Below, in pieces: positions 9,001 to 54,734 of a stretch of 64,000 bases of DNA (position 1 is the stretch's first letter; the number at the start of each line of letters is the position of its first letter). Below the pieces are notes generated by a model. It was not told where the DNA came from. It saw only the letters and a program-made list of their open reading frames with translations, and searched no databases. Both the position numbers and the translations under genes were made by a program. Source of the DNA: a virus (Duplodnaviria; Caudoviricetes); IMG/VR virus record IMGVR_UViG_3300043480_000021, positions 5,422-69,421 of that record. One strand, given 5' to 3'.

Positions 9001-12000
9001 TTGTGCTGGGTGCCTTTAAGCTTTTCACGGAGCAGCTTCCGCGCGGCCTCGGCTTTGTCCTCGGTGACGAAGGTGTTTTTCTTGCCGTATTCGGTTTTCT
9101 GTTTTTTCGCCTTCTTTTCCTGCTCGAAGTAGGCCCGCTGGTCGATCGCAAGCCCGCCCATGCCGGAGAGATCGAGATCGCCGTCCTCGGCCTGCGCGTC
9201 TTTCGCCGCCTTGGCCATTTCCTGACGACCTTCTTCCGTGCGGAAAGGGCTGATCGGCTCGTCGACCGTTTTCGCTTCCTCTACGAGGCGGTCGATCTCG
9301 TTCCGGAGCGTGAGACCGAAAGACTCGGCAGCCATCTCGTCGTAAAACGTCTGGGCGCGTTCGCTGAGAGCGCTACGCGGGGCAACTGTCCACCAGGCAT
9401 AAATGCCATTCCAGAGGTCCTCAAGCAGCGTAATGGCTTCTTCGCGATCGATCCCGGCAAGCTTGTCTGCCTGATTTACGGCCTGCTTGAGTGCGAGGCG
9501 CATAGCTCCGGATTGTGCGAACTGGTCCATGCCCGACGCGCGGCGGCCGCCCCAATCGTCGACAAGAGAAGCCTCGCGGGATTCCGGGAAGAGCTCCGGC
9601 AACGTTTTTGCGGTTTTTACGTCTTCGTCGACGAGGTCAGAGAAAAGAGCGGGCGCGGCCTCGGCTTCCTTCGCGGGCTCCCCGATCCTTCCTGGCGCTG
9701 CGGCCTCTTTCTGGGGTTCAGCTACATTTTCGCCGAAGTCGAAGCTGATATCTTCTTCAGCATCGGACTCGTTTTCTTCGTCGGAAAAGTCGAAAGAGAG
9801 GTCTACTCCGTCGCTTTCGGGTTCGGTTTCGTCGAGGATTTCTTCGCTATCGGGGTTGAAGATGCTTTCCGGGCCATCTTTGCGGCCAGCATGTGGCCGG
9901 CCATCGAGAGCATCGGCACTGCTTTCTTCAGGCGGTCCAGCCTCGCCCCGCCGGGCGACGTGGGTAAGGAGTTCATTGATGATCGATCGGGTTTCTTCTT
10001 CACTGAGTCCATAATTATATCCTAGTTTGACCAAATCATCCTGTTTTTCTTCCGAGATCTCGCCGTCGAGCTCCAGGTCCTCAAAGATCGGCCAGGCTTT
10101 GTCGTCGGTCAGGAAAAGCTCTATCTCGTATGTTTTCTTAAATTCGGCGCGGTTCATACCCGCGAGAATGGTCTCCAATTGCTCTTGCTGAATTTCCTCG
10201 CGCTGGTGATCATCGACGAGCTCCGCGGCGTCCTTTTCGCCGCCTTCTTCAGTAACGAAGTACCGGCGGATGCCGCGGGCGTCCTCTTCGATCAGGTCGA
10301 GGAATACGTTCGGATCGCGGTCCTGAACATCCGGCCACAGGTCGCGCAGGTATCCCATTTCCCAAGCATGCTCGGCCATGTGCTCGGCGTTGTACCTCGA
10401 GTTTCGATTGACGAGGCCGATCTTTCCGAGCTCCTTTTGCGAAATGCGCTCGAGCTCTCCGCCCAGGCGTCCGCGTTTAGCGTCGTCCGTGTCCGGACGG
10501 ATACCACCGGAGGATTGAACGAACTGCCAAAGTGATTTTGCCTTTCCGGGCCTTCCACTCGGCCGCGCGGGCTTACGAGCAGCAATACGCTCGTTATTGG
10601 CGTTGAAGGCTTCACTCTCGAAACTGCCGGCGATCTCGCCGGAGACGTTGCCAGCGGGCGCATGCGTGATTTTGACGCGGGTTTTTCCGGTCACCTCATA
10701 CTCGTAGCCTTTCCAGCGCAGCCGGGCCCGATTTTGCTTCTTCCGGAGGATGCTGGCGGTCGACCGCGAAACGTCGACGCTAACAGCACTCTCTAAAACC
10801 GAGGGTTTTACCTTTTTCGGCGATTTACGGAAGTATTCCCGCTTCGAGATCTTGTCTCTGACGATACGGTCGAGATCGCCGGGCTGAACATTCTCGAGAT
10901 CCTGCGCGTGATAGCCGAGTTTGCGGAGGATCCGGGTCCGCAAAGACTTGAGAGGTTTGGCGGCGTGAGTTTTTTCGCGCAGGTCGACCTCGGCGATCCG
11001 TTCGCCTTTTACCGGCAGCTCGAAGCGTTCGAAGACATTCCGCGCGCCGGTATCCGTTTGGACGGGCTTTTGAGAAGTAACCAGGTTGGAGACGAATTTC
11101 TCCTTCGGCGATTCCGGCATCGAGGGTTTCGCTTCCTGGATCCAGCGCATCGTGTCCTCAGCCGTCTTTTCCTCTTCACGCTTCTTGACGGCGTCGGAGA
11201 CCGGCATAACGACCTGCGAGACGGGCTCATCCGGAAAATGAGCTGCATCCTGTGCTTTCTGCTCCTCGATATTCGCGGGATCCGTAATGACGCTCGACGA
11301 AAGCTCCCGGCCGGTCTGATCCTCGGTTCGGACGACGTCTCCGGTTGCTGTGTCGCCGGTATGATCCTCAACCTTTCCGAGCATGTCGGAATAGCCCTTT
11401 TCCTGTACGTGCGCGGCGATCTCCTCGGGAGAGTTAAGACCGAGCTGCTCCTTTGCCTTTTCGGTGTTTACAAAGAGGACGCCCTCGTCCACAGGGACCG
11501 GTATAAGTTTTTCCGCGCCGGGCCCGTTTATCAGCTCGCCCTGTCCGGATTCGGTAAGGAGGACGGCGGACCGCGGCGATTCGTCGATCAGAGTGCTTAC
11601 GATCTGCTTTTGGATAGTAAAGTCCGATTCCGGCGACGTGGGCGCGGGTCTGGCCTGTTCCGGCGCCTGGACCGGAGCTTCGGCGGAATTGTCGGCGCCG
11701 AGGATATCGTCGACAAGACTAACGCCGGAGGGATGCGCTTCAACAGGCGCGGATTCCGCGGCCGGCGCGGGTGTTTCTGGGGAGAGGGGAATAAGAATAT
11801 CCGGGCGGTCCTCGTCCTCGATCGGCTTCGCCTCGAGGATCTCCTCGTCGCGCGGGATAACAACGTCTCCGACCTTTTCTTTTGAGGGAACACTGATACC
11901 GGATTTTTCGGCAATATCTTTCGAGATAACGACCTGCCTCTGCTGGAGCGCTGCGAGCTCGCGCCGGAGCTTCCAGATCTGTTTAAGAACGCCGCGGTTA

Positions 12001-15000
12001 GCGGAGAGTCCTTTTTTCGGGTCTGCCTTATCTTGGAGCGCGGAGATCTCGGCCTGGACCTCCTCGATGCCGTTCCGGCTGTTCTCGTAAGACTCGATAA
12101 GCTCGCGGTTCTTGTCGGTGACCTTAACCTTCTTACCGAAAGCATAGATCTCGCCTTCGCCGAAATGCTCGATGATCACGCCGTTCGCTTGCTCTTCCTC
12201 GATCGCGCGTTTGATCCTGCGCCGGTTACGGACGGTATTGAGAACCGTAACCGCCACGGACACGAGAGGCGCGGATATGCCGGCGACGAGCATGTTGTCG
12301 GCGAGGTCCTTGTCGGCCTTTCGGTCAGGATCGTAAACGAGATTTGCGACGATGTTCCCGGAAAACGTCTGCGTGCCTTCCTGGACGAGCTCTTCGGGCG
12401 CTTCCTTTCTCGCCTCCCTCCATGCTTCCCGGAAGAGTTTCCGCCACACGGTACCGCCGGCGCCTTTATTGAGACGGACCAGCGCTTCGCCGATACCCGC
12501 GATCTCGGTAATACCGAGCGGAGCGGTCAAGAGACCGGCCAGTTGTGCCTTATCTTCCGACGCGCCGAACTCGATCGCCTCTTTGTACGTATCGCCGCCC
12601 ATCTGCAGGGAAGACAGGAGGGCGATCATCAGCTTTGGGGATTTCGAGAAGCCGCCCGGCATCATTCCGAGCGAGGACCCCACGCCCTGCGGAAGTTTGC
12701 CGGCGAGAAACTCCCGCTCCATGTCTTCGTCGGTCGGCAGCCATTCGTTTAAGAATTGCTCGCCCCTTTCGGCGATCCCGAATGTCGCATAGTCCGAAAC
12801 CTTTTTGCGCGGGTTATCGGCGCCGTAAAGGACGTCGTCGATCGATTTCGAAGCCAAGGCTATGCCTCGATAGGTCGACGCGATCGCGACGGACAGAGCG
12901 GACTTGACGGTACCGAAAATGATGCCCTGGGCGCTGCCCTTGATGTAATCGCCCCAGCTCATTTGAGCGACCCGGCTTTTTCGGGCCTCCTCGGCCAGCT
13001 CGAGCTCGCGCATTTTGCGGTTGCGGTTGGTGATCGAACCGTAGAGCTCAAGTTCGCGCCGCATGTAGTTGGCCGTATTCTGAGCGGCCGCGGCGTCGGT
13101 TGGTCGCAGATCGAGCTCCTGAAAGCCCGTCGCGCGGGAGGCCTGCACCTTTTGATTTCCGCCCTGGATCTGTGCCCGGCGCTCCGATTGGAGCTTCCGG
13201 TACGCTTCGGCTTCCTTTTCGGCGACTGCGCGGGGAAGCCAGCCAACCTTGGCCTTTGCCTGCAGGGAGGCTAGATACGCATCGCCCTCTTGTTTCTGAA
13301 ATTCCTCGAGATATCGGCCGAAGTCTTTTCGCGAAACGCCGCCTTTGACCTTGGCCATCTCGAGCTCGTCGTAGCGCCGATCGGCGAGGGCCGAAGGATC
13401 GAAGTCGTTTTCCTTGAACTGCGCGAGATCGCGCGGCGTGAATTCCTGGCCCGAGGCGATAATGCCGAGAGCGTAATCCTCGAGCATTTTTCGGCGTTTG
13501 GATGAAAAAGCCTGAAGATCCTTAAGATCGCCGCGGGTGATATCGAACGGCTCTGTAGCTTTGTCGCCTTTGGCAAAATAATCCTCATGGCTGTAATTCT
13601 TGCCCGTATCGAGTTTGCGAAAACCAGTAGCTTGGTAAAAAGCCCGGATATCCGACTCGGGCACCTCCCGGAAGAGCTCCGGATCGCCCGCAACAGCGCC
13701 TTTCAGCGTAATCGCCACTTGATGGCTTAAAAGCAATTTAGCCGCTTCGTCGGTCGTTGAATTCTTTAAACGCTCCGGGATTAGTTCGATTCTCGTCTCA
13801 TGGGTGGCCAGCGATGCCAGAGACTCCGGACGAATATCCTTGGTTACAGGGTTTGCGATATACGTCTCGCCCTGATCATCCATCACGCGAATCTCGCCTT
13901 GCTTCAACCCGGCCGTATCCGGGGTGTGGGTAAGAACGCGCCCGTCCGCCGTTTTGATCTGATCGGTCCGCTCGAGGTCCGTTGCTTGTTTTTGCACCTC
14001 ATCTGAGGGGGAATTTCGAGCAACGCGCGGCACGCCGGCGCCCGGGCCGCGCCGTTTTGCCTGTTTCGGCCGGTTGGCGATCGCTACGTCGAGCTCGGCG
14101 AAGAGAGCATTATCGTCGGGTGTGAAAACACCCGTTTGTTTCCCATCCTTTACCGCCTGGTGCCCGTCGATGAATTTGCGGCGCAGCTCCTCCGAATCAG
14201 TGAATCCGTACGTCTTCAGATAACTCTGGTAGGAGGCTTTTAACGCGGGATCGTCCGGAAGCACAGATTTCGGCTTCGTCTTTCCAAGTACCCACGCCGG
14301 CAACTCGCGACGTATCTCAAACTTTTCGCCGTTCGGTTTAGCGAGATACGTTTTGCCGGTCTTCGAGTTTTTTAGCCTTATAAATCCTGGCGGCACATCC
14401 TTATCGTCGGTCTGCACTACCTCGCTGCCGTCTTTCTCCATGAAGCGCAGCTTTGGGTTTTCTTCGGCAATCTTTGTACCATCTACGATAAAATTAACGG
14501 GATTGCCGGCGACCTCTCGCGTGTACCTAGTACCCGCCTTGACGCCCTTTTGCCCGTCCGGGCCATCGGCGCGGATATACTCGGCCTTATTACCGTCCTG
14601 GATGCGCTTTGGCGGGCCGGTAGGCACAAGACGGACCTTTTCGCCTTCGATCTGACCTTCAAGAAGATCGCCGTCGGCATCCTTGAAGTAATGCTTGCCG
14701 CCCGCGGTACCGACATACTCGTGATCACCGAGCTTGCCGGATCGTTCGAAGTCGAACGTAGGGACCTTGTTTCGCTCGAAAGTGGTAGGGATCGGCGCGC
14801 TGAAAGGGGTACTTTCGGGGGAATTAGGAGTTTGATTTTTTTGATTGGTGAGGGCTGTGCCCGGTAGGGCTACGGAAGCAGTCCGCCCGTTTCCGGACTG
14901 CGGACCGCCGGGCGTAATTTGGCGTGACGCGCCGATGGTTTTCTTTTGCGCGTTCAACTGCACGAGCTGTTCCGTGATCTTCCGGATGGCGTCGGAGATA

Positions 15001-15866
15001 CGGCGCCGCTCAACTCGGTCCTTTGTCTTTTTCAGCTGAATCTGGAGATCGTCGCGCTGTTTTGTGAGATTTACGATCGGGTCGACCTCCGGAGGATCCT
15101 CCGGGGCGACATTTGCGCCGGGCATGGTCTCCGGGATCCTCTCAGGTACCAGGATCTCGGGAACCTCACCCGCGGGCTGTCCCGGTTCCGGCTGGCCGCC
15201 TAGCACATCGCCTACAAGGTCGCTGCCGGTCGCGGGTCCATCTTGCGGACGAGCTCCGGCCATAACATCCTGAATCAGGTCGTTGGCCGACGCGATTCCG
15301 AACGGTATGCCCGAAGGCATCGGTCGCGCGGGCGGGCGGGCGAACCCGCCAGTTTTCTCGACGTATGACCGGTACGTTTCTTTAAGATCCGGCCGGTAAG
15401 AATAAAGCCTGATATTTGGGACCTCGCCGGTCCGTCGATAGTAACCGATGATGTTGTTTCTCGCCCCAACATAGCGCAGCCGCCGCACGACGGGATCAAC
15501 AGGATCGCCGGCGACAAACTCACGCAGTCCCATTTGCCAGTTATCCTGCTCGTTGAACGGGTCCAGGCCTTCGGCTTCATAAGGTTTCGCCGTGCCGGGC
15601 ATTATTTGAGAGCCGCCGATCGCCCGGTCGCCGTTTGCGGTTGGTATGCCGCGCTTGACGATATTTGTGCCCGGCCAATAATGAGCGCGTCCGCTTTCGA
15701 TTTTTATGAGGTTGTAATAATCCTCAACATCATCGTCGGAGATATTGACCTTCCGACGACGCGCCTCCTGGGCCGCCTGGTAGAGCTTCGCCCTCACACC
15801 GTTATCGCTTTTTGCTGGTGCTTTCTTGCTTTTGGTGCCGAGTAGATCGTCGATTATGTCGGACAT
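1..15866 (-). CDS. Giant DarB-like / large polyvalent virion-ejected protein, at least 5288 aa, 3'-truncated by the window edge (lytic transglycosylase + SF2 helicase + N6-adenine MTase + further domains)
   Basis: ATG at 15866 (MSDIIDDLLGTKSKK), 8 nt after the upstream stop. My manual translation stays in one frame to position 3 (...IRVMNRIAKEKGLDLNKIW) with no stop seen; frame re-checked at 10040, 3797 and 59. The missing stop explains its absence from the ORF track. Confidence 0.9.
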   Translation of the reverse strand, partial: MSDIIDDLLGTKSKKAPAKSDNGVRAKLYQAAQEARRRKVNISDDDVEDYYNLIKIESGRAHYWPGTNIVKRGIPTANGDRAIGGSQIMPGTAKPYEAEGLDPFNEQDNWQMGLREFVAGDPVDPVVRRLRYVGARNNIIGYYRRTGEVPNIRLYSYRPDLKETYRSYVEKTGGFARPPARPMPSGIPFGIASANDLIQDVMAGARPQDGPATGSDLVGDVLGGQPEPGQPAGEVPEILVPERIPETMPGANVAPEDPPEVDPIVNLTKQRDDLQIQLKKTKDRVERRRISDAIRKITEQLVQLNAQKKTIGASRQITPGGPQSGNGRTASVALPGTALTNQKNQTPNSPESTPFSAPIPTTFERNKVPTFDFERSGKLGDHEYVGTAGGKHYFKDADGDLLEGQIEGEKVRLVPTGPPKRIQDGNKAEYIRADGPDGQKGVKAGTRYTREVAGNPVNFIVDGTKIAEENPKLRFMEKDGSEVVQTDDKDVPPGFIRLKNSKTGKTYLAKPNGEKFEIRRELPAWVLGKTKPKSVLPDDPALKASYQSYLKTYGFTDSEELRRKFIDGHQAVKDGKQTGVFTPDDNALFAELDVAIANRPKQAKRRGPGAGVPRVARNSPSDEVQKQATDLERTDQIKTADGRVLTHTPDTAGLKQGEIRVMDDQGETYIANPVTKDIRPESLASLATHETRIELIPERLKNSTTDEAAKLLLSHQVAITLKGAVAGDPELFREVPESDIRAFYQATGFRKLDTGKNYSHEDYFAKGDKATEPFDITRGDLKDLQAFSSKRRKMLEDYALGIIASGQEFTPRDLAQFKENDFDPSALADRRYDELEMAKVKGGVSRKDFGRYLEEFQKQEGDAYLASLQAKAKVGWLPRAVAEKEAEAYRKLQSERRAQIQGGNQKVQASRATGFQELDLRPTDAAAAQNTANYMRRELELYGSITNRNRKMRELELAEEARKSRVAQMSWGDYIKGSAQGIIFGTVKSALSVAIASTYRGIALASKSIDDVLYGADNPRKKVSDYATFGIAERGEQFLNEWLPTDEDMEREFLAGKLPQGVGSSLGMMPGGFSKSPKLMIALLSSLQMGGDTYKEAIEFGASEDKAQLAGLLTAPLGITEIAGIGEALVRLNKGAGGTVWRKLFREAWREARKEAPEELVQEGTQTFSGNIVANLVYDPDRKADKDLADNMLVAGISAPLVSVAVTVLNTVRNRRRIKRAIEEEQANGVIIEHFGEGEIYAFGKKVKVTDKNRELIESYENSRNGIEEVQAEISALQDKADPKKGLSANRGVLKQIWKLRRELAALQQRQVVISKDIAEKSGISVPSKEKVGDVVIPRDEEILEAKPIEDEDRPDILIPLSPETPAPAAESAPVEAHPSGVSLVDDILGADNSAEAPVQAPEQARPAPTSPESDFTIQKQIVSTLIDESPRSAVLLTESGQGELINGPGAEKLIPVPVDEGVLFVNTEKAKEQLGLNSPEEIAAHVQEKGYSDMLGKVEDHTGDTATGDVVRTEDQTGRELSSSVITDPANIEEQKAQDAAHFPDEPVSQVVMPVSDAVKKREEEKTAEDTMRWIQEAKPSMPESPKEKFVSNLVTSQKPVQTDTGARNVFERFELPVKGERIAEVDLREKTHAAKPLKSLRTRILRKLGYHAQDLENVQPGDLDRIVRDKISKREYFRKSPKKVKPSVLESAVSVDVSRSTASILRKKQNRARLRWKGYEYEVTGKTRVKITHAPAGNVSGEIAGSFESEAFNANNERIAARKPARPSGRPGKAKSLWQFVQSSGGIRPDTDDAKRGRLGGELERISQKELGKIGLVNRNSRYNAEHMAEHAWEMGYLRDLWPDVQDRDPNVFLDLIEEDARGIRRYFVTEEGGEKDAAELVDDHQREEIQQEQLETILAGMNRAEFKKTYEIELFLTDDKAWPIFEDLELDGEISEEKQDDLVKLGYNYGLSEEETRSIINELLTHVARRGEAGPPEESSADALDGRPHAGRKDGPESIFNPDSEEILDETEPESDGVDLSFDFSDEENESDAEEDISFDFGENVAEPQKEAAAPGRIGEPAKEAEAAPALFSDLVDEDVKTAKTLPELFPESREASLVDDWGGRRASGMDQFAQSGAMRLALKQAVNQADKLAGIDREEAITLLEDLWNGIYAWWTVAPRSALSERAQTFYDEMAAESFGLTLRNEIDRLVEEAKTVDEPISPFRTEEGRQEMAKAAKDAQAEDGDLDLSGMGGLAIDQRAYFEQEKKAKKQKTEYGKKNTFVTEDKAEAARKLLREKLKGTQHNAGLDPDVAKAGIELAAYHIEAGARLFADYAKAMIEDLGAGVIPYLKSWYLAVQFDPETSHFTAGMNDIAAIDKALDQFSAETDKVVQATAEKPEIATEDAPATVDEIPAAPADQATQTLPPAGDTLFDMGGLDQEGLFAVGGPAAIGETPDNDAGKREQIARLKQNATDTERERNMNVFGPELGRLLIERKANPSTPHASRAAGIVLARRGDIEAKGRPALDLVGDVVAAIEEIGEAEMRGMPFEEFILQGGLFGATEFTSAQREVYDEIGAGRFEGFFNKRLDQLDAAKEYGDVASSTEDLARDSSERPGDEFRQELPNAESGRDGDSARTSSDRAGEQGSGSEGSDIVPGAGAAPGGTRGDIEVRESPPGDQASTSGDFDDGRGGPDSDSGLLFEYRPSDAVRAAAQRNSELGEKRRLQEEAESHELVLRDLDNIRATLPFLLPEQHEDVLFAENRLEEGEGVLFTNGTGTGKTYTGLGIAKRLHRQGKKSILIIAPNDKILEDWRTSAENVLINAKRLESTVDHGRDGTVLTTYANFRANNTLIERVWDAIIFDESHYLSQNKDGDETGAVQMLRAVALHDRGQWNYHAVKNAAELEQLEAAREEKEKASRQYRRTYSEADKGKYDEANAKYKRLLDALQPLQDAAYAEYDRRRETEARPKVVFLSATPFAYEKNIEYAEGYLFSYGPDVDTGGYNSGSSKDRFFMQHFGYRMRYNKLTKPDADVNTELMEQQFNSMLQKAGALRGRRLNIDVDYSRKFILAESAIGMKIDEGFQYIWDQSQNKALETIEQRRFWNLHEYARKRFNYLAKRFTLEAINARSVIPIVKAQLEAGRKVVVFHDYNKNEAIHPFDFGPDFNGVIRLDGEIYDVGDVYAKFTAARPDLVGLDLTTLVAPNEVFPAEFGDQVKMFNGTVPKMKRREAVADFNDDAGSTKILLSQSDAGREGISLHDTTGQYQRVLINLGLPVRPIAAIQTEGRIYRVGTKTNAIQLYITTGTNFEQYAFGTQISQRASTAENLALGEEARALRQAFIDGYQEAVTDYAPSENEGLGGKEGDRALAAAMTDYQKAIGFYFGKGKKTSRNKSAEGKDYYATPEPIGLKMVEWADQRLAEHTLEPSAGHGAIARWFRPDNRKTVIEPSQELAAQLSLVTDGRLERDIFENHHTGANKYHTIVMNPPFGSGGKTAVDHVAKAAKHLHNQGRIVALIPDGPAADKQLEKFLKSEDAKDLYKIGDIHLPGVAFKRAATQVRTHIIILEKQFFPEHVKQLPSGGGLDLSHFDDIKELFDYLEHVEVEPRIVTSEAGPVSITPSPAAAAMEGAEGAPAQTAGVGSDMFDAAEFDHTTNGNRIFVAKPKELLDKATFNTLRYTMAPRYGGYYSKFNKGGAVAGFHFSTAAERDAFIAEASMPTGMKAAILPGPAPTFYSQVEKVITDKMPKRAPADQVRGILKPEYGIKKEELDWLGIDDFLASKDAFSKDEVLDFVRSNNVQVEEVIKGGTFRTGDIFIKEWNSESTERNGRKGKLHYFQADITRPHPVYEEHGQKIRVGSIFEDGKIFEATSAQGVKQFHTFDEAKRYLNDGAEVRFMDEGLGNPFEASPTKYSDRVLPGGENYRELLLTLPTSESALTSDQLTRYQKLDAMDTGDVSIAQRQEWEMLANRKNLNSANDRIFQSKHFDEPNILAHIRFNDRTDADGKKTLFIEEIQSDWHQAGREQGYSPKGPQKQYFLRKPDGDIGQDFASKEEGEQFFDKNPHAGSLDSFINNETGVLDAPFKKSWHELAFKRALRYAAENGYGAVAWTTGETQNDRYDLSTQVKSLSYTYSDGQYGIKGVSLRGNPFDIGVYDEAGLAAAVGKELAEKIKTDREGGLLTKEYTGDNLKLEGSGMKGFYDKIIPNFVDKYTRKWDAKVTPAEINTNQYGVVQSGTGDFYIVGNDSKPIGEKSAARPYKIEENAEAAAKRMNTQKAHAVEITPEMQISVMQGQPLFATRLPGQKSYDEIVGASLGDLIAPMRVELDGPKSYRIKLNAEAAEFLRRVYQEIRFQQTKTQAFEVPFYALFDILKDTKSNREFTAKVIRFINDQAKEAQRLGYTTNEVLNIKNVADAIEIAAENGAGGFIFYVDDRFLPEEEFHRAGYMIFNAAISEDRFADNLNHHTAVEKYKQIYGAYLDQFPASVRDAVAWDETAAILARGGMEELGVSEDEAVEYLAGFFESIAKRLEEKGINVEQALKNYDAVREQHIREQIRRTTEEYRSRREKAGRPGRDSEQGGQKPQSPPGEDPGSPPGGAGGERFNLGPPVLKGPGIASLPETLRAHGYESDRKTYDIRSHDDVRRAVAEMADYANVAEIIYQKLLSGKDLSSVDTGLAIELVQRLQREARADLKAGKKDFYEAKKGQAAQIADILDEKLREAGRFIEAVKLMEPFSPDFIVETAKRRMQRFDPDAEMTPDLEAELLKMAEELEESKNAVDELTRKYGRLDRRFKKYRELDRVERQKRRRARRAKNRISRAKESIIKKLAEKESDIIDKFRDRFNPPTDMKAANMTAMKAADVTTAQNVGLTDEELNELAEFGALELARGMIKLEPEMFTLRLQEIFGAGIRPFADQIHARSYAKYKELLREENKKNALERLKSANPDLNDAEIDQLYTERKEKQKEARKIANAHLKQARAADPEATGKKSRAARRGSTSAGTSGTDTDPALTPLQQAIIDEAEKQDIDPILRETSLMLANPKTRDYNGIARVLNDRHGLTKEEADRMIGKGLAFVRDVKRVRAEKVQEARAEKEAELTDEARAEIDAAHARHRQAENELRKKLDALSRKPVGYMPRLRRIWKGLLISSYKTAFNNAISGGFTIGVRTATDTIDLFLRKAATKGKIKLGEDGLDPKLKFRDILALQAWRALRSRRMAEGILDRYAYQYEMMFGRYNADIEADVKHDQVDGNKALAKVDKGADAAFRGAEWFVDKVNIFNMVQEFHVRSIEFIRVMNRIAKEKGLDLNKIW
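5180..5740 (-). other. N6-adenine DNA methyltransferase domain of the giant protein
   Basis: DYYATPEPIG, SAM-binding LEPSAGHG (about 5625-5650) and catalytic IVMNPPF (about 5455-5475), in gamma-class order. Confidence 0.85.
5880..7700 (-). other. SF2 helicase domain (Strawberry-notch-like) of the giant protein
   Basis: Walker A FTNGTGTGKT (about 7575-7600), Walker B IIFDESH (about 7320-7340), motif III LSATP (about 6985-7000), and C-terminal AGREGISLH...QTEGRIYR (about 6045-6170). Confidence 0.85.
7757..8119 (-). CDS. Nested (overprinted, +1 frame) 120-aa protein inside the giant ORF
   Basis: SD AAGGAG at 8127-8132, 7 nt before ATG 8119; TAG at 7757. The product MLQVAPKIWHEIAANGLATNFGRNFLTLKADEMAIAHERAATELENKG... 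has globular helical composition. The giant-ORF frame over the same bases is a G/S/D/R-rich disordered linker. Confidence 0.7.
   Translation of the reverse strand: MLQVAPKIWHEIAANGLATNFGRNFLTLKADEMAIAHERAATELENKGVDPKVAISYLELAPLLAERVAISRYANHHPAIRQVLPEILTTDEAVQIATRDSFLNIDQATQLGQLLNATLN
15330..15866 (-). other. N-terminal lytic transglycosylase (SLT/lysozyme-like) domain of the giant protein
   Basis: Catalytic-Glu motif LIKIESG (about 15693-15710), followed by GGSQIMPGTA and LDPFNEQDNWQMGLREF, matching the SLT E-S, GxxQ and helix-N pattern. Boundaries approximate. Confidence 0.75.
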
Positions 15867-15874
15867 GATAAAAG

Positions 15875-17017
15875 CTACTGGGTAGGAATGTACCCCCACG
15901 TTTGCATCGCATAGGCCTCGAGGGCTGTCCGCGTCTCTTCCGGGGTCGGCATCCGGAAGTTGGTCCGTGAGAAATTAGCTTCCCATTGCGAGCGATACGT
16001 CGACATTTGCTGCCGGGCCTGCTGGTACTGAGTCGCGGTGATCTGTTTCGTCTGCCGGTTATTTTGCTGCTGCTGGTTAAACTGCGTCGACCACTGCGAA
16101 AGAACGAGCGGCGCGAGCTGCTTCGGAGCTATCTTCAGCGGTACGCCGCCGATCTTCGCGTCGATCGGCACTTCCGACGCGTCGACGGGCATACCGGGCG
16201 AGGGTTCCCACTCTTTGGTGTCCGGGTTCTGGGTGAAGAACGCGCCGGCCTGCTCCTTCGTTTCGCGCCTTCTCGCATCGAAGTCCGAGAGCTCGATATC
16301 GGCATCGGCGAGCTGCTGGTCAAAATCCGCGTTCGCGCCCTTCTTGTAAAAATTCTGCTTCGCGATCTGGCCGAGGAGCTGCTGCCGGAGCGTAAGTTTG
16401 CGTTTCTCCTCGTCGCCTTTAAGCTTTTCTTCATCCCGCGCCTTTCGATCGGCGTCGTCGCGGGTCATATTTTCCATTTGCGACTGCTTGTAGGCGCTTT
16501 GGAAATACTGGTCCTCTTCCTTATCGAGCTGGCCGAGGTCCTTGCGGTTCGTTTCCTGCTTACGAAGCCGCGCATCTTCCTCGTCCCACTTGTCGTTGAT
16601 CATGCCGCCGGCGAACGCCCCGGGCGCTCTCGACAGACGCCCGAAAAACTCTTCCCAGTTTTTGACGACGCCCAACTGCGGGCTGTAGGCGTCCGCCAAG
16701 GCGCGGAGACCGGCTTCGGCGCCGCTCCTTAAGCGCGAGTCTTCGGATTTTTCCGTTTTATGAGAAAGCTGCTCCCTTTCTTCCTCGAGCTTCCTGCGAC
16801 GATCGGCATAAGGCCCGACATAGGGCACGGACGCGCCTTTCGCGATCGCTTCGGGCGAAGGGTTGGCATTAAAGTGCTGATCGCCGAGATCCGCCGGCTG
16901 TTGTGGACGAAAAACGGTAGGGACCAGCGTGTTACCGCCGCGGCCGCTAAGCGTGGCAAAATCTTCCTCGGCATCGCGCCGGCGTACGGTCGGTACTCGT
17001 GATTGCTGATTTCTCAT
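15875..17017 (-). CDS. Putative internal virion/ejection protein (380 aa)
   Basis: Q/E/K-rich helical protein directly upstream of the giant ejection gene. Function inferred from position only. Confidence 0.5.
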   Translation of the reverse strand: MRNQQSRVPTVRRRDAEEDFATLSGRGGNTLVPTVFRPQQPADLGDQHFNANPSPEAIAKGASVPYVGPYADRRRKLEEEREQLSHKTEKSEDSRLRSGAEAGLRALADAYSPQLGVVKNWEEFFGRLSRAPGAFAGGMINDKWDEEDARLRKQETNRKDLGQLDKEEDQYFQSAYKQSQMENMTRDDADRKARDEEKLKGDEEKRKLTLRQQLLGQIAKQNFYKKGANADFDQQLADADIELSDFDARRRETKEQAGAFFTQNPDTKEWEPSPGMPVDASEVPIDAKIGGVPLKIAPKQLAPLVLSQWSTQFNQQQQNNRQTKQITATQYQQARQQMSTYRSQWEANFSRTNFRMPTPEETRTALEAYAMQTWGYIPTQ

Positions 17018-17042
17018 ACTCGACTTAAAATAAAGCTGCCCT

Positions 17043-17723
17043 ATGACTTATTTGCGACACGCCAACGGCGGAGGGAAAAAATTTGACGAGGCCGAGGCAG
17101 ATCCCGGTACGTTTCTTTCCCGTTCGTCCTCGATATCGGGCGAATCCGATCTATTCGAGGCCGTTGTAGATAACACCGAGGAAGACAAGATCGTCGACTC
17201 GTTTATCCACCAGGCGCAAATTATCAACTCTTCCGTTCTCTCGACCATCGTCGCCGGCAAGGTCCGTGTTGAAAACTGCCTTGTGGCCTGTAAATCGATA
17301 ACCGGCCACGTACGCGCGACGAATTCCATCCTCCAGGGGGAAACTCGCCTTTTCGGTTCAGCGGAATCCCACAATTCCGCATTTCAAAATCTGTCCGTCG
17401 GCGGTACCGCGAAGATCGTCGACTGGAACAAGCTTTTCAAAACCAACGGTACCGGGCCCCATATCTTTGACGGCCAGTTCGGCCGGATAACGTCGGGTAC
17501 ATGGACGAGACCGCCGCGGATTATCCGTTTTGAGGACCTCGAGGTCACTGTAACCGAAAGCACCGAGGGGCGCGCCTTTGTCGGTTGTATCGAAAAACCG
17601 ATGAAGCGCTGGATCCAGGGCGGTCATTCGTACGGCGCCGCCCGCGGCTGGTCACCGGAACAGGTCGACCGTCTGGCCGATATTTTCAAAGAATGGTTAC
17701 TTGCCTCTCAGATACGGTACTAA
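17043..17723 (+). CDS. Hypothetical protein with beta-helix-like (hexapeptide-type) repeats; the only convincing plus-strand gene (moron-like)
   Basis: 226 aa with periodic I/V-x-x-S/A pattern (IVDSFIHQAQIINSSVLSTIVAGKVRVENCLV). It fills a gap with no credible minus-strand gene. Confidence 0.65.
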   Translation: MTYLRHANGGGKKFDEAEADPGTFLSRSSSISGESDLFEAVVDNTEEDKIVDSFIHQAQIINSSVLSTIVAGKVRVENCLVACKSITGHVRATNSILQGETRLFGSAESHNSAFQNLSVGGTAKIVDWNKLFKTNGTGPHIFDGQFGRITSGTWTRPPRIIRFEDLEVTVTESTEGRAFVGCIEKPMKRWIQGGHSYGAARGWSPEQVDRLADIFKEWLLASQIRY

Positions 17724-18044
17724 GAAGACCAGGAACCCGATCACCGCGATAGCCGTGCCCACGATCGCGTAAAACTCCTTCCTACTAAGAAAATCTCTCT
17801 CCCTGTCGGTCATGGCGCCGCGCCACTCGTTTGCGCTCTTTCGCCAGTTTTCGCCTTGTTTTTCGAGCTTGTCGGCGGCAAGGGTGGACGCCGTGAGCGT
17901 CACGTCCGTTTTTCCCTCCTGGTCCTTGAAACGTTGGTCGATGTGCCCGTACAGGTCCTTGAAGCGCTGGTCAACGTTCATGCCGGCGTCCGTAAACCGC
18001 TGGTCAACATAGTCCCTCATTTGTACCGTTTCGGTTTTTGCCAT
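17697..18044 (-). CDS. Holin-like membrane protein (coiled coil + C-terminal TM)
   Basis: 115 aa ending FYAIVGTAIAVIGFLVFLVPYLRGK; last gene of the lysis cluster. Confidence 0.5.
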   Translation of the reverse strand: MAKTETVQMRDYVDQRFTDAGMNVDQRFKDLYGHIDQRFKDQEGKTDVTLTASTLAADKLEKQGENWRKSANEWRGAMTDRERDFLSRKEFYAIVGTAIAVIGFLVFLVPYLRGK

Positions 18045-18057
18045 CTTTCCCGGTCGT

Positions 18058-18729
18058 TTACGCGCCTTTCTCGATCTCAGCGATCATCCACATCTTCCCG
18101 ACCCATCCGAGAACGTTACCGAGCTCGTCTTTATTGCAATAGGCCTCGCACCTCACCGAGACCACCGATTCGTCAGGCCGGATAACACGAAAGCGGTCGC
18201 TGAAGTCTGTACCGTCGCGGACCGATGACATCCAGTTCTCGACGACGGCCTCCCGGTAGTGGCCATGTATCGCGTTGCGCCAGTTAAAGCCCGTGATCTG
18301 CTCTAATTTGCGGCCGGTCATCACCAGAAACGCGGTATTGGCCCAAAGGACCGCGCCTTTCATATTGGCCTCGAAAAATGCGTCCTCGTCGCATTGCATG
18401 ATCGCTCGCCTGGCGGCCGTCTCCGTGGCGACGTGCGCGCGGATGCTGTCGAGGCTGGATCGGAGCCAGGTAATCTCTTCGATAAGGGTTTTACCGCTCT
18501 CGACCTTCATTTGCGCTTCAAGCCGGGCAACGACGTTCGGAGCGTCAAGAAATCGACCGCACCAGCGCTGTGCGGCCTTTAAGCGCTTATGACAGAACTT
18601 CAGATAACCACCGATCGCGCCGAGTCCGCCGAGGAAAAGTAAAACATAGCCATAGTACTCGGCCAGGGTTGCTATCAGCTTCGGGGTCGTTTCGGGAGTT
18701 GGTTCCAACATAATGTCCTTTCCGCTCAT
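18058..18729 (-). CDS. Membrane-anchored PAS-domain protein
   Basis: N-terminal TM (YYGYVLLFLGGLGAIGGYL), coiled coil, then PAS signature FFEANMKGAVLWANTAFLVMTGRKLEQITGFNWRNAIH...FRVIRPDESVVSVRCEAYCNKDELGNVLGWVGKM. Start placed at MSGKD, just after the upstream stop. Confidence 0.8.
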   Translation of the reverse strand: MSGKDIMLEPTPETTPKLIATLAEYYGYVLLFLGGLGAIGGYLKFCHKRLKAAQRWCGRFLDAPNVVARLEAQMKVESGKTLIEEITWLRSSLDSIRAHVATETAARRAIMQCDEDAFFEANMKGAVLWANTAFLVMTGRKLEQITGFNWRNAIHGHYREAVVENWMSSVRDGTDFSDRFRVIRPDESVVSVRCEAYCNKDELGNVLGWVGKMWMIAEIEKGA

Positions 18730-18734
18730 AAAAC

Positions 18735-19319
18735 TTAATCCGCGGCCCACGCCGGAATGACCGCCTCGGGCCGATAGTTAGACCCGAGCAGCGCCTTCAG
18801 GCCGGCGCCGGCGAGAACGCCCAGCACCATCTCGGCCGCCCTCTTGATCCCGCTCAGGATCTTCTGGAAAATGTTCTTTTTCGGCTTCATGAGCTGCAGC
18901 TGCATCCACGCGATAAAGTCCTGCTGGATCTTGATCATCCCCTGCAGGAGAAGCTCGAGCTGCTTATGCGCGTCGATCTCCTGGTTCTTGATGGCGAGGA
19001 CACGGTCGAAGCTTCCTATCAGCACGGTCGCGACGGCGCGCTCGGCACGGCTTGCGCCCTGGGCTTCGGCGGCTTTAACCGCAGCTTCCCGAAGGGCTAA
19101 TACCTCGTCGAAAGCCTTATTAGAATCGTCGACATAGGTCTGGTCGACCACGACCGGATTGTTAACATCCGGCGGAACCGGGATAAGCCTTGCACCGGGC
19201 TCGGTTTGACCGGCGGAGGTTTGAATTAGCGTAATTAGCATTACGTACAGCATCAGCATAGCGCCGAGCTGCGTCCGCAGCCTCGTTCTTCGTGTCGGTT
19301 TCAGTTTTTGCAGCTTCAT
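18735..19319 (-). CDS. Secreted coiled-coil protein overlapping the spanin-like gene (o-spanin analogue?)
   Basis: Basic n-region plus hydrophobic h-region signal peptide, coiled coil, hydrophobic C-terminal segment LGVLAGAGLKALLG. It overlaps the upstream gene by 158 nt in another frame, as in Rz/Rz1 pairs. Confidence 0.5.
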   Translation of the reverse strand: MKLQKLKPTRRTRLRTQLGAMLMLYVMLITLIQTSAGQTEPGARLIPVPPDVNNPVVVDQTYVDDSNKAFDEVLALREAAVKAAEAQGASRAERAVATVLIGSFDRVLAIKNQEIDAHKQLELLLQGMIKIQQDFIAWMQLQLMKPKKNIFQKILSGIKRAAEMVLGVLAGAGLKALLGSNYRPEAVIPAWAAD

Positions 19320-19593
19320 GGTCTTTCCTGTTCTCCTCGAGGATCGCGCTCTCTGCCGCGTCCTCTTTCTCCAGCTCGTGGATCACTCCCTCCTGGGTTT
19401 CAATGGCCTGCCCTTGCGCGTTCACATTCGCCTGGAACTCGCTCATCTTTTTGTTGGTGAAAAATCCGTCTATCCCGCCAAAGATGGCGCCCAAGACAGC
19501 GCAGATGATGACGAAAACAAGGACCACGACGGCGACTCCGATCCCGATCTGCCAACCACCGGATAACTTTTTAAATCTCGTGGCCAATTTCAT
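19162..19593 (-). CDS. Rz-like inner-membrane spanin candidate
   Basis: N-terminal TM (WQIGIGVAVVVLVFVIICAVLGAIF), long periplasmic coiled coil, two C-terminal Cys; directly downstream of the endolysin candidate. Confidence 0.6.
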   Translation of the reverse strand: MKLATRFKKLSGGWQIGIGVAVVVLVFVIICAVLGAIFGGIDGFFTNKKMSEFQANVNAQGQAIETQEGVIHELEKEDAAESAILEENRKDHEAAKTETDTKNEAADAARRYADAVRNANYANSNLRRSNRARCKAYPGSAGC

Positions 19594-19608
19594 TTCGCGG
19601 TTTCCTCC

Positions 19609-20928
19609 TTAACCAGCTTCGGGCTCGAACGCTTCTTGGTTCGGATTTATAGGAGCCAAAGCGGCCGCGACTGCCGCCCTACGCTCGCCGTTGCCAAACA
19701 CTTCGGGCATCGCCGTAGGTATGAGGTTGTGGGTCGTCGGGTTTTGCCATGAGTTCTGGCACATAGCTATGATCTCGAGGACCTTTTGACGCTGGGTGAT
19801 GATCAGGTAGATGACCAGCGACGCGGTGACGATCGTTCCGACGCCCAGGAGTATCTGAAGATGCGGAGGCAAATTCATTACCCAGGTTATCGCCGTCAGG
19901 AGCATTCCCCCGCCCGGGATCGCCGACAGCCACTTCAATCTGCCGAGCTGCGGAAGAAACACCGGTACGTTCTTTTGCTCGAACGTGCTGGTCGTCGCCG
20001 TCATAGTCTTTTCAACGGTTCCGTCGTCTTTTTCGGTTACGGACTCCGTAAACTCGCCAAGCGGCGCGTCCTCGCCGGGTTCGCCACCCACTCCCATGGG
20101 AGCGGCCTCGAAGGTTGCCGCGTGAGGATCTTCGTCGCCAATGATGCCGGCGTTCAGAATGTCGTCTTCGTCGTCGAGCTCGGCGATCGCGGCCTGAACC
20201 GCGGCTACCGATAACGGCTTGCGCTCGTCGACGAACGAAACGGCTGCCTTGACCTTCGGAACGTTGACGAAATGCTGCGCCTGGTACCGCATATCCGCGG
20301 CGGTGTCGAATTCGTTCTCCTCGAGTTCGAGGATGTGATTGAACTCGGCCTGCGTCAGGAGAATGTACGGGATATTTCCAACGCCAACATTGAACTGCTT
20401 CGTCGCCCTGCGCTGTATACCGAGAGGTACGTCCACACCGAGGGCGTCGCCGACAAAGGTAATAAATTCCGCGAATTGTTTGCGCGGGCACGTCTGGCAG
20501 CCGCGGCTTCCCGTTGTGCGATCGCCGCCGGCGTGGATATTGATCGCCGTTCCCATCGACTCGTAGAGCTGTCCGGACCTAATCGATTTCCGGTAGCATT
20601 TCAGCTGTTGCGCGGGATTATTCGGCCGAAGGGCAACGTAACGCTTCCCGTTCTCGCTGATGTGGTGATAGGACATTTTGAAGAAATGAACGCCGGTCCG
20701 GAGGATCGCCACTTCGGTCGCGCCGACGGCAAACATGCTCGGATCCGCATTCCAGTTAAAAGCCTTGATCGTGTCCGCCTTTCGGCTATACCAAAAGCCT
20801 TCGTCGTCGAACCAGTTAATGCCGGCGTTCCTGATCGCGAGGCCGATGCACTCGTAGTTTTTCCAATCGTCTCCGAAAAAGTAGCGGTAAATTTTTTCTG
20901 CCGATGAACGGCGTAAAGCTGGTCTCAA
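19609..20928 (-). CDS. Endolysin candidate: YkuD/L,D-transpeptidase-like catalytic domain + acidic linker + two C-terminal TM helices
   Basis: Motif INIHAGGDRTTGSRGCQT (H...S-x-G-C) near 20490-20545. Hydrophobic segments LSAIPGGGMLLTAITWVM and LQILLGVGTIVTASLVIYLII. First gene of the lysis cluster. Confidence 0.6.
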   Translation of the reverse strand: MRPALRRSSAEKIYRYFFGDDWKNYECIGLAIRNAGINWFDDEGFWYSRKADTIKAFNWNADPSMFAVGATEVAILRTGVHFFKMSYHHISENGKRYVALRPNNPAQQLKCYRKSIRSGQLYESMGTAINIHAGGDRTTGSRGCQTCPRKQFAEFITFVGDALGVDVPLGIQRRATKQFNVGVGNIPYILLTQAEFNHILELEENEFDTAADMRYQAQHFVNVPKVKAAVSFVDERKPLSVAAVQAAIAELDDEDDILNAGIIGDEDPHAATFEAAPMGVGGEPGEDAPLGEFTESVTEKDDGTVEKTMTATTSTFEQKNVPVFLPQLGRLKWLSAIPGGGMLLTAITWVMNLPPHLQILLGVGTIVTASLVIYLIITQRQKVLEIIAMCQNSWQNPTTHNLIPTAMPEVFGNGERRAAVAAALAPINPNQEAFEPEAG

Positions 20929-20968
20929 TGTCTAAAACCTCCAAAACTAACTGCCTTTAACGCTTCAT

Positions 20969-22240
20969 TTACGCGTTAACCTGGTACGTAAAAGTGAAAT
21001 ACATGTCTTGTCTCGAAACATCAGCGGCCATCCATTGCATAGACGCCCCCTCATTTGCGTTGTCCGCCAAGATGGCGGCACCGAGCCCTGCGACGCCCGG
21101 ACTGAACGCAACACCCGCACATTGCTCTGCCCCGGCTAAACTCGTCGAAACAGGCAGCGAAATGCCCAAAAGCGTATTACCGGCAGCTGTCGGGTCGACT
21201 GTGACCCTGCCGGAGACCGTAACAGCATCCCCCACGCGCAACCATTGACACATATACGGCGTAGAAGCGGCAATATTAAGCGTGTCGAAAAGTGTCGGGT
21301 TATAAGTGCCGTAGTTTGAGCCTACGATCGAATTGCCGTTCAGCGAGATGTCACCGCCTGAAGTGAACTCAAGATTTGCATCGGCGTGAATTTGAACCTT
21401 ACCGGTTAGGGCATCGATTTTAATGTCATTTACCGGGTCCGTCGCGACGTTTTCGATAAATCCGCCAACTAAGGTTTCTCTCGTCACGGTCTTGACCGTT
21501 GGCGAGGCGGTTACTACCGAATCAGTCCAATCCGCTTCATAAGGAGAATCCGGCATGTCACTGGAAGCATTAACAACGGTCCCGAGGTCATCACGGATTT
21601 CCCACACACCGCTACCTTCAAAATTCCCAATAATGGCGCTTATCTCGTCGCCGGTTCCAGTAGAGTTATAGACGGGTAGGCCGTTATAGGAATGCGTAAA
21701 ATGATAACCACCCGCGCCAAGCCCGGTTACCACTACATCGGTCTGCTTAACCCAGAACTCATCGGTCGGAGCCACCGCTACCGCTTCTTCAGCGGGAGAG
21801 AGGGGAACTGACTCAGGGCCTTGTACCTGTTCCGGCGTAACGGAATACGCAGTCTCAGCAACGGCAACCGCGGGAACGGGGAGCGCTCCGCCGCCGAATA
21901 CCGCCCACACGCCGAGCCATGGATGCTCCACGTCGTCGCTGGTATATTTCCTTACCGCGCCGCCGTATATGGCCCACGATGCGCCTTCATTCACAAGGGA
22001 ATTAACCAAAGGGGCGTCATCTTCGCCGACGAGGTTATAATATGGCTTGTTGTTGGATTCCCCTCTGTAGGTGTACGTGCCTCTTACTGCCGCTGTACCC
22101 GCGAGAGTTACTTCCACGGCATTCTGCACTGCAATAAGCTTTACGCCCGGATCCAATGCCGGAACAGTGTCGAGCAGGTTAACCGCTCCCGCCAAGTTGG
22201 CCGCTATTTGAGCGGCGGTAGTTTTTTTATTTCCGAGCAT
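20969..22240 (-). CDS. Tail fiber / receptor-binding protein
   Basis: 423 aa, beta-rich. Two similar internal modules (TYTYRGESNNKPYYN.../GYHFTHSYNGLPVYN...) and a fiber-tip-like C-terminus (GTYNPTL...WLRVGDAVTVSGRV...FTFTYQV). Confidence 0.65.
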   Translation of the reverse strand: MLGNKKTTAAQIAANLAGAVNLLDTVPALDPGVKLIAVQNAVEVTLAGTAAVRGTYTYRGESNNKPYYNLVGEDDAPLVNSLVNEGASWAIYGGAVRKYTSDDVEHPWLGVWAVFGGGALPVPAVAVAETAYSVTPEQVQGPESVPLSPAEEAVAVAPTDEFWVKQTDVVVTGLGAGGYHFTHSYNGLPVYNSTGTGDEISAIIGNFEGSGVWEIRDDLGTVVNASSDMPDSPYEADWTDSVVTASPTVKTVTRETLVGGFIENVATDPVNDIKIDALTGKVQIHADANLEFTSGGDISLNGNSIVGSNYGTYNPTLFDTLNIAASTPYMCQWLRVGDAVTVSGRVTVDPTAAGNTLLGISLPVSTSLAGAEQCAGVAFSPGVAGLGAAILADNANEGASMQWMAADVSRQDMYFTFTYQVNA

Positions 22241-38664: not shown

Positions 38665-38931
38665 TCAAGGGTGCTTTTCGGAAGGGGATACGGCCGCGCC
38701 GGCGAGACGCTTTTCATGCCGGTTCATACGGTATGACAGCGCAGCCTGGTTAACTATTATGGCAAGGAAAAACTGCATCAAAACTACCATCGCTCCGAAA
38801 ACGGCGTCGAACCGGCTGAGCGCGTCCGGGTCGTATTTCTGCACCTCGTGGCGCATGTTCATGGTGTCGCGGTGACGGGCGACGGCCTTTTCCTCGCCGC
38901 TTAAACGCCTGGTCGATGGTGTTTCGTTCAT
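38665..38931 (-). CDS. Small membrane protein coupled to the sigma gene (anti-sigma candidate)
   Basis: 88 aa, ATGA overlap with the sigma stop, one TM (FDAVFGAMVVLMQFFLAIIV). Confidence 0.5.
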   Translation of the reverse strand: MNETPSTRRLSGEEKAVARHRDTMNMRHEVQKYDPDALSRFDAVFGAMVVLMQFFLAIIVNQAALSYRMNRHEKRLAGAAVSPSEKHP

Positions 38932-39509
38932 GCAGCGAGATAGGACGGATGGAATACCCGCGGGTTGGCCTTCCTGTTCAGTAGTTTCTGCATTTTGTTC
39001 CGCGCTTTGTGCAGCTGGGACTTTGATGTGCCGACCGAGCAGCCGAGAAGCCTCGCCACTTCTTCATGCTCGAATCCCTCAATATCGTGGAGTATCAGAA
39101 CGTTTCGGTAGCCGGCCGGTAGCTGAGCGATCGTTTCCTTGAGCAGGAATCCCCGGTCAAGCGCGGCCGGCCGTTCGCTTCCGGGTACCAGCGCGGCCTT
39201 GAGGCGCTGTTTGGCGAGCTCGTCGTCGAGCGGGACGGACCGCTTTCCTTTCTGCGCCCGGATAGCCATCAGGCATTGATTAACGGCGATGCGGTGGATC
39301 CACGTCGAGAGCCGCGACTGAAACTCAAACGTGTCGAGCTTCCGGAATATGACCAGCATTGTCTCCTGGACCATGTCCTCGGCAAGCGCGGGGTCGAAGA
39401 GGATCCGGAAGCACACGTTTTTAACGCGGCCGTGGTTTTCCGTGAGAATGGCCGTCCAGGCATCGCCGTCGCCGGCAAGGGCTTTTTCTACCAGCTCGCG
39501 ATCGTTCAT
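38928..39509 (-). CDS. ECF (sigma-24/RpoE-like) RNA polymerase sigma factor
   Basis: Region 2 AEDMVQETMLVIFRKLDTFEFQSRLSTWIHRIAVNQCL; region 4 LPAGYRNVLILHDIEGFEHEEVARLLGCSVGTSKSQLHKAR. Confidence 0.92.
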   Translation of the reverse strand: MNDRELVEKALAGDGDAWTAILTENHGRVKNVCFRILFDPALAEDMVQETMLVIFRKLDTFEFQSRLSTWIHRIAVNQCLMAIRAQKGKRSVPLDDELAKQRLKAALVPGSERPAALDRGFLLKETIAQLPAGYRNVLILHDIEGFEHEEVARLLGCSVGTSKSQLHKARNKMQKLLNRKANPRVFHPSYLAA

Positions 39510-53512: not shown

Positions 53513-53588
53513 CCCGCGCGGCGTCGCCAGAAAGAGCAGATGGATCCCGGCATCTATAGAGCCATCTGCGAAAGGTAAGTCGGTAATA

Positions 53589-53601
53589 CCCCCCCCCCCC
53601 C
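53589..53601 (-). repeat. G13 homopolymer tract (C13 on plus strand)
   Basis: Counted directly; the only run of this length I saw in the window. Confidence 0.95.
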
Positions 53602-53633
53602 ACTTTTAACAGTGTTTTTCAGATATTCGTGCG

Positions 53634-54665: not shown

Positions 54666-54679
54666 AAAGAAAGAACCAC

Positions 54680-54727
54680 AAATCGGGGAATCGCGTAGCC
54701 CGTAGAGGCGAAGAGATTCCCCGATTT
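54680..54727 (-). terminator. Hairpin with 13-bp perfect stem after the (XG)n ORF
   Basis: AAATCGGGGAATC / GATTCCCCGATTT inverted repeat, followed by GTGGTTCTTTCTTTTT on the minus strand. Confidence 0.6.
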
Positions 54728-54734
54728 GACATGT

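Follow-up and report, generated by a model that had tools for sequence, protein, structure and literature searches.

A phage-only family of PAS proteins with one transmembrane helix, encoded in lysis gene clusters, and its possible role in lysis timing

The timing of lysis sets burst size and phage fitness, and the cues to which known lysis regulators respond are holin concentration, membrane potential and superinfection. In bacteria, Aer, ArcB and FixL are membrane-tethered cytoplasmic PAS sensors, and PAS-only proteins act via protein-protein contacts. Phage T4 achieves lysis inhibition with its holin T and two antiholins, the periplasmic RI and the cytoplasmic RIII (PMC11413866, PMC8385771), and the large domain of T is itself periplasmic (PMC11413866). 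Lambda S107/S105 and P1 LydB/LydA are antiholin-holin pairs (PMC10865782, PMC9025707). A phage-encoded PAS domain is found in VqmA of vibriophage VP882, a quorum-sensing receptor composed of PAS and HTH domains (PMC8284805). Our literature search returned no paper that connects PAS domains with holins, antiholins or lysis cassettes of phages, and none of T4 RI/RIII, lambda S107 and P1 LydB has a PAS domain or homology to the protein described here.

That protein, composed of a transmembrane (TM) helix, long helices and a PAS domain, is encoded in a 64-kb stretch (the window) out of one 69.4-kb virus record. The minus strand carries nearly all genes of the window, whose content includes ParB, DnaB and DnaD-like replication genes, large terminase, capsid protein and pectin-lyase-type tail fibers. 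A nucleotide search of the GenBank phage collection found no record resembling the region of the PAS gene. The phage DnaB shares 60% identity with a Pyrinomonadaceae MAG and 55% with a Blastocatellia MAG, a weak hint at the host; around the DnaB genes of these MAGs, nothing else matches the phage. The phage also encodes a sigma factor (phrog_1740, E 1e-25), another protein whose PHROG matches, to sigma and small-terminase families, are weak, and a PAPS-reductase-like protein (phrog_424); this group of three genes occupies 38928-39509, 47424-48302 and 52055-53512, all on the minus strand.

The gene and its PAS domain

The PAS gene lies at 18058-18729 on the minus strand and encodes 223 aa from its ATG. 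Further in, the frame has another ATG at 18711 (Met7), preceded at 4 nt by a Shine-Dalgarno-like run, GGAAAGGA, that is better than that of the first start; Met7 adjoins a Met kept in 70% of relatives, suggesting that the true product may be 217 aa. Compared with a 70%-identical homolog in a related provirus (L001), the whole gene has a dN/dS of 0.12 and its PAS domain one of 0.05, indicative of a selected coding sequence. The open reading frame is a real gene under purifying selection.

The protein begins with a short, acidic N-tail, continues with a single Gly-rich TM helix and two long helices patterned in heptads, and closes with a complete PAS_3 domain. The TM helix (residues ~18 to 44, 18598-18678 on the minus strand), containing the stretch GGLGAIGG, is assigned by hydropathy and flanking charges and lies within a helix modeled by AlphaFold2 at residues 17 to 74. 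Its best 19-residue Kyte-Doolittle window is moderate, at 1.53, with 6 of 19 residues small (Gly, Ala, Ser, Thr), 5 of them Gly. Next come a basic juxtamembrane helix (residues 45 to 74), a conserved loop (75 to 81) whose motif is common to distant relatives, and an N-cap helix (82 to 112), together at 18394-18597 on the minus strand and delimited by the AlphaFold2 model and a heptad profile. In this family-wide profile, strong hydrophobics fill 0.56 to 0.68 of the a/d positions of both helices versus 0.18 to 0.19 elsewhere.

The PAS core (residues 113 to 215, 18085-18393 on the minus strand), predicted to be cytoplasmic, is identified by Pfam, NCBIfam and Foldseek against PDB structures, alongside its dN/dS. 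Over residues ~108 to 211, the Pfam families PAS_3 (47.4 bits, cutoff 25.6), PAS_9 (31.9, cutoff 27) and PAS (26.9, cutoff 22.6) match, as does the NCBIfam S-box model TIGR00229 (29.3 bits versus a cutoff of 22.9). The AlphaFold2 model, built with a 27-sequence family alignment, has a mean pLDDT of 88.6 and shows helix 17-74, a short loop, helix 82-112 and a canonical PAS core at 117-215, with four helices and five strands (117-121, 127-130, 176-183, 189-200 and 206-215) at pLDDT 96 to 98. Foldseek aligns it to PAS structures of LOV, NifL and CPS_1291 with a probability of 1.00 and a TM-score by target of 0.66 to 0.83. The protein ends 8 residues beyond the PAS core, which leaves no transmitter domain, and the search for kinase, cyclase, HTH, HAMP or other transmitter/output domains in it returned none. 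An earlier note on this DNA had read from the letters one TM segment, a coiled coil and a complete PAS fold ending the protein, with no kinase or cyclase, and had named an AlphaFold model as a check on the fold. Hydropathy, Pfam, TIGR00229, AlphaFold2 and Foldseek bear out the TM segment and the terminal PAS fold; for the coiled coil, the heptad profile by itself gives a clear family-wide pattern in both long helices.

Among solved structures, LOV domains are the best sequence matches. A flavin-binding LOV reading was rejected, for the position of the adduct-forming Cys (GxNCRFLQ motif) is an invariant Trp150 in a profile alignment with phototropin and aureochrome LOV domains, and the flavin-contact Asn of the LOV strand is replaced by V/K in the family. 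Inspection of the family alignment by eye revealed neither a FixL-type His nor an Aer-type motif, and no other cofactor signature was found in the PAS domain.

A phage-only family and its predicted topology

An exhaustive HMMER search recovered full-length relatives with the same TM-helix-PAS layout at 179 to 243 aa, homologs of 200 to 236 aa among them. The 44 short relatives match the query over the TM-helix-PAS part only, and longer proteins were matched through generic PAS domains only. The nearest ESM Atlas clusters are 100% viral (Uroviricota), PAS-only, 187 to 229 aa long and contain up to 1,142 members, and the best BFVD matches are proteins of 195 to 205 aa labeled "PAS domain [uncultured Caudovirales phage]." Queried by blastn and tblastn with the window protein as well as two distant relatives, the GenBank phage records contained no family member; a pattern scan of GTDB species genomes gave none either, and further scans of viral contigs with single distant members as query returned no relatives. 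The TM-PAS family is phage-only, ~200 to 230 aa in size and uncharacterized, with many members in metagenomes and none in cultured phages, as judged from the GenBank phage records.

In P0099 and P0124, two distant relatives, the PAS domain is followed by a receiver domain, and one distant relative has a second PAS domain. P0099, P0124 and P0017 all keep the TM helix, the loop motif E-F-x-P-N-G-G-S-S-x-K/R-D and the PAS domain. In locus L098, a receiver variant (TM-PAS-REC, L098:1532-2620) directly follows a Peptidase_M15_4 endolysin and precedes terminase and portal genes. The existence of receiver-domain variants suggests signaling rather than mere scaffolding.

The charges flanking the TM helix are biased across the family. 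Among the 44 short relatives, 39 have K/R in greater number over the 15 positions following the TM helix than in the whole N-tail, and the mean net charge of the 44 changes from -1.3 before the helix to +3.3 after it. By the positive-inside rule, this bias predicts an N-out/C-in orientation, with the PAS domain in the cytoplasm and the N-tail in the periplasm. This predicted orientation is the opposite of a T4-type class III holin topology (N-in/C-out, with a large periplasmic domain), which the charge bias speaks against in those 39 of 44 members.

Could the PAS protein itself be the holin, as a one-TMD, class III-like hole-former with the PAS sensor as its soluble domain? Its single TMD carries small-xxx-small motifs, and its length of ~220 aa is like that of T4 T; on the other side, its predicted topology is opposite to that of T, Pfam gives no holin match at E<=0.1, and PHROGs gives no match of any kind. 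Neither collection relates its sequence to a known antiholin.

Gene context in fourteen loci

In the window, four genes surround the PAS gene, all on the minus strand. Farthest upstream is a YkuD-fold peptidoglycan enzyme of 439 aa (19609-20928), with the fold at residues 1 to 228, a disordered acidic linker and C-terminal TM helices. Its residues H132...S141-x-G143-C144 are invariant in 19 homologs, its best 20 VIA structural matches are all L,D-transpeptidase/carboxypeptidase folds (Z 4.8 to 7.7; the top 18 at 6.0 to 7.7), and Foldseek matches it to 8qzg with a probability of 0.99; together with an AlphaFold2 model, this makes it a candidate membrane-tethered endolysin. It is followed by an Rz-like i-spanin candidate of 143 aa (19162-19593) with an N-terminal TM helix and a coiled coil, which matches phrog_214, "Rz-like spanin," at E 4.8e-7 and has a weak DUF2570 match on record. 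The next gene (18735-19319) encodes a secreted coiled-coil protein with a C-terminal hydrophobic segment; its 194-aa open reading frame starts with a signal-like peptide, and gene callers place the start at GTG 19151 (138 aa). The L001 homolog is 87% identical, and the upstream frame there is also open with the same signal-like peptide; the homolog in L095 (36% identity) has its own N-terminal signal peptide, supporting the long 194-aa form. The 3' end of the Rz-like gene and the start of the 194-aa frame overlap by 158 nt in different frames (19162-19319, minus strand), which resembles an Rz/Rz1-type arrangement, but the second product lacks a lipobox Cys. Downstream of the PAS gene, a 115-aa tail-anchored protein (17697-18044) with three DQRF repeats and a C-terminal TM helix has weak family matches only and is not kept in related loci; its architecture is reminiscent of XhlA-type lysis proteins, but the family searches gave no match beyond these weak ones. 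The window contains no canonical small holin and no homolog of the holins of related loci.

We examined 14 distinct loci (the window, L001, L005, L006, L011, L013, L014, L091, L092 and L094 to L098). In 10 of them (the window, L001, L005, L006, L011, L013, L014, L095, L097 and L098), the PAS gene follows an endolysin, holin or spanin-like gene of the same strand at a distance of no more than 5 kb. A small membrane protein encoded with the endolysin is a class feature of holins, and the PAS protein shares it, with one TM helix and a place at the distal end of lysis clusters in these 10 of 14 loci. The lysis enzymes differ among them (GH19-like PHROG endolysin, Amidase_3, Muramidase, Peptidase_M15_4, LysM enzyme and YkuD fold), and at least four genome layouts are represented; since the loci come from related phages, the independent observations number fewer than ten.

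The immediate neighbors of the PAS gene vary from locus to locus. In L001, a provirus on a 472-kb metagenome contig, a PHROG endolysin with a C-terminal TM helix, a 2-TM protein of 82 aa, a 72-aa protein, an Rz-like protein and a secreted protein precede the PAS gene, and a 128-aa TM protein, a 121-aa protein, DUF6441 (weak) and the small and large terminases follow it. In L095, the order is a Muramidase with two C-terminal TM helices, a TM-coiled-coil protein of 130 aa, an opposite-strand gene, the homolog of the secreted protein, PAS, a 62-aa protein, another opposite-strand gene, a 375-aa protein and a giant protein. L096 has an enzyme-like 358-aa protein with C-terminal TM helices, a secreted protein of 122 aa, PAS and a giant protein. 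L006, L011 and L014 share a holin (one with a Phage_holin_10 match), a lipoprotein with a C-terminal hydrophobic segment, a small acidic protein and further genes before PAS, with a protein of ~525 aa and a giant protein after it. L097 encodes an Amidase_3 endolysin, a 36-aa TM protein, a 3-TM protein of 107 aa, a 71-aa protein, a lipoprotein and a 67-aa protein, then PAS, methyltransferase, PAPS reductase and terminase. In L005, PAS comes after a LysM enzyme, a small 2-TM protein, a secreted protein and lipoprotein, and DUF5662; in L013, after a peptidoglycan-binding fragment (identified by eye), a 2-TM protein of 67 aa and proteins of 80 and 133 aa. The contexts of L091, L092 and L094 are uninformative or unrelated to lysis, and no recognizable lysis enzyme was found near the PAS gene in L091, L092 and L096 or in the too-short L094.

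Two groups of neighboring proteins stand out. Four different N-terminal domains occur in phages with the PAS gene, each fused by way of a low-complexity linker to C-terminal TM helices, one or two in number: the YkuD fold in the window (19609-20928, minus strand), Muramidase PF11860 (L095:3976-5286), a PHROG endolysin that is GH19-like by eye (L001:7387-8559) and a domain without family match (L096:5414-6490). No mutual sequence similarity was detected among their C-terminal TM modules. They could be membrane-tethered endolysins or endolysin-holin fusions, and the tethering of endolysins by C-terminal TM helices is itself a little-studied arrangement. The second group comprises lipoproteins or N-terminally anchored proteins whose genes immediately precede the PAS gene or nearly do so (L005:6753-7340, L006:7083-7964 and L011:1218-1943); these proteins share 23 to 27% identity (E ~1e-5) and have no Pfam/PHROG match.

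Gene context also bears on whether the PAS protein is a holin. It is encoded in a lysis cluster, and a separate small holin is missing from the window, L095 and L096, which speaks for such an identity. In holin-less loci, however, the endolysin brings its own C-terminal TM helices, and relatives in L006, L011, L013, L014 and L097 stand beside separate holin-type genes with 2 to 3 TMDs, one of them being the Phage_holin_10 match. With canonical small holins adjoining it in related loci, the PAS protein need not form the hole itself, and we consider a holin identity very improbable. The earlier note had called the protein holin-like and had proposed a signal-responsive holin or antiholin. The first description finds no support in family matches, predicted topology or the separate holins of related loci; of the second, the holin part is unlikely, and the tie to lysis is supported by the gene context of the family.

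Comparison with the L001 provirus adds a further piece of evidence. The two phages share a replication module (window 51177-57161) at 82 to 87% nucleotide identity, and outside it their nucleotide homology is confined to 19515-18057, a block that starts inside the Rz-like gene and ends exactly at the stop codon of the PAS gene. This confinement indicates that the Rz-like, secreted and PAS genes travel as one unit between otherwise different phages, and it provides the strongest single argument that the PAS protein may work with envelope-disruption genes. The structural genes of the two phages are unrelated, a clear case of modular exchange.

A block of three genes that travel together, with a homolog of the secreted protein kept at 36% identity in L095, would also suit a ligand-free subunit, whose PAS domain serves as a mere dimerization module organizing an envelope complex with the Rz-like and secreted coiled-coil proteins. 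PAS domains commonly dimerize, and the missing cofactor motif agrees with such a role. We nevertheless judge this structural role improbable: the PAS domain is predicted to be cytoplasmic, whereas spanin-type partners act in the periplasm, the PAS gene occurs in many loci without the Rz-like and secreted partners, and the receiver-domain relatives point to signaling.

A stronger challenge comes from the position of the gene at a module boundary. Accessory genes are frequent at the ends of lysis clusters, and the PAS protein might be a membrane sensor with no role in lysis, acting in superinfection exclusion or host takeover or as a factor linked to the giant ejection protein. In seven loci, a giant polyvalent gene lies 0 to 5 genes downstream of the PAS gene; the synteny may thus stem in part from common descent within a single phage clade and not from function. 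In the window, this giant gene (3-15899, minus strand) runs on beyond the left end (3312-21395 of the genome) as an open frame of ~6,000 codons; another assembly has the same gene as a 5,992-aa call, for which a ResIII hit is recorded. The domains of its relatives in other loci (SLT, ddrB-ParB, SNF2, methylase and ART-PolyVal) suggest that its product is a polyvalent, probably ejected, protein. Lipoproteins and secreted proteins with no assigned role often stand directly upstream of the PAS gene, and the L092 context is a non-lysis one, with LemA-like and NMN-adenylyltransferase-like genes (both by eye), which likewise fits a sensor without a lysis role. Against it, the lysis link persists where no giant gene adjoins (L001, L097 and L098) and where the giant gene is upstream of the endolysin (L005), and the mosaic block joins the PAS gene to spanin-like genes.

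Operon structure and defense models speak to the same alternative. The PAS gene begins 5 nt after the upstream stop, and 13 nt separate its own stop from the next start; a promoter/terminator scan around it gave signals at chance level. Hence, we read the gene as part of the late operon. A defense-system reading was rejected, as no PADLOC family (E<=0.01) matches the PAS protein or four of six neighbors tested; two marginal coiled-coil matches both fall on the Rz-like protein. The tight packing and the absence of a defense-model match argue against an independently expressed accessory or exclusion gene, and we regard a membrane sensor outside lysis as fairly unlikely, though still a serious competitor.

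A proposed lysis regulator and its closest counterparts

From genomic position and domain logic, we propose that the PAS protein is an accessory lysis regulator that senses the cytoplasm and is antiholin-like, acting via its TM helix on hole-forming TM segments. We hold this reading tentatively, at slightly less than an even chance. The suggestion of the earlier note, an antiholin that ties lysis timing to host state, is in this form our best hypothesis, drawn wholly from those two lines of reasoning.

The PAS protein would be a bitopic inner-membrane protein, with its short acidic N-tail in the periplasm, one Gly-rich TM helix and the PAS domain in the cytoplasm, and the basic juxtamembrane helix and the heptad helix would probably form a parallel dimer. 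Its gene would be cotranscribed with the late lysis genes. The PAS domain may read a cytoplasmic cue, such as a metabolite, redox or energy state, and relay it through the helices, which would alter the association of the TM helix with hole-forming TM segments. These segments might belong to a separate holin in some relatives and to the C-terminal TM helices of the tethered endolysin in the window phage. As the outcome, membrane permeabilization would be delayed or advanced.

A bolder extension of this proposal is that TM-PAS proteins form a new class of lysis-timing regulators, widespread in uncultivated tailed phages, in which the PAS domain reads the metabolic or redox state of the host and, via the TM helix, keeps the TM segments that form the hole, whether those of holins or the tails of tethered endolysins, in an inactive state as long as the signal is unchanged. 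We see this as possible but doubtful. If true, phages could time the burst by a chemical or energetic signal that they sense within the host, an internal-state counterpart of the superinfection-sensing lysis inhibition of T4.

How does such a protein compare with known systems? As in T4, a lysis cluster encodes a globular domain on a single TM helix, which would be the point where a signal alters lysis timing, and the PAS protein is similar in size to T (218 aa). The two differ in that there is no sequence or family match between them and that the large domain of T is periplasmic, whereas the domain here is a PAS fold predicted to be cytoplasmic; to our knowledge, the large domain of T is not a PAS fold. 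The signal in T4 is superinfection, whereas the cue of the PAS protein is a proposal only.

Lambda S107 and P1 LydB offer a second comparison, as accessory proteins that are encoded with a holin and delay hole formation. S107 is, in addition, a membrane protein governed by N-terminal charge and topology, a further likeness. Unlike the PAS protein, S107 and LydB have no sensor domain, they share no homology with it, and the window lacks a canonical holin as partner.

Among bacterial sensors, Aer, ArcB, FixL and short LOV or PAS-only proteins resemble the TM-PAS protein in having a cytoplasmic PAS domain near the membrane (predicted here) and a helical linker, and LOV and NifL provide the best structural matches of its PAS domain. 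In contrast to these sensors, the TM-PAS protein has no HAMP, kinase or transmitter domain, and the LOV Cys is the invariant Trp.

VqmA, like the TM-PAS protein, brings a PAS domain encoded by a phage; that of VqmA senses a small molecule and couples the decision to kill the host to a host-derived signal, and the proposed role of the TM-PAS protein would be similar. As a soluble protein with a DNA-binding output, VqmA acts on the lysis-lysogeny switch, whereas the TM-PAS protein is anchored in the membrane, has no output domain and is encoded among late lysis genes.
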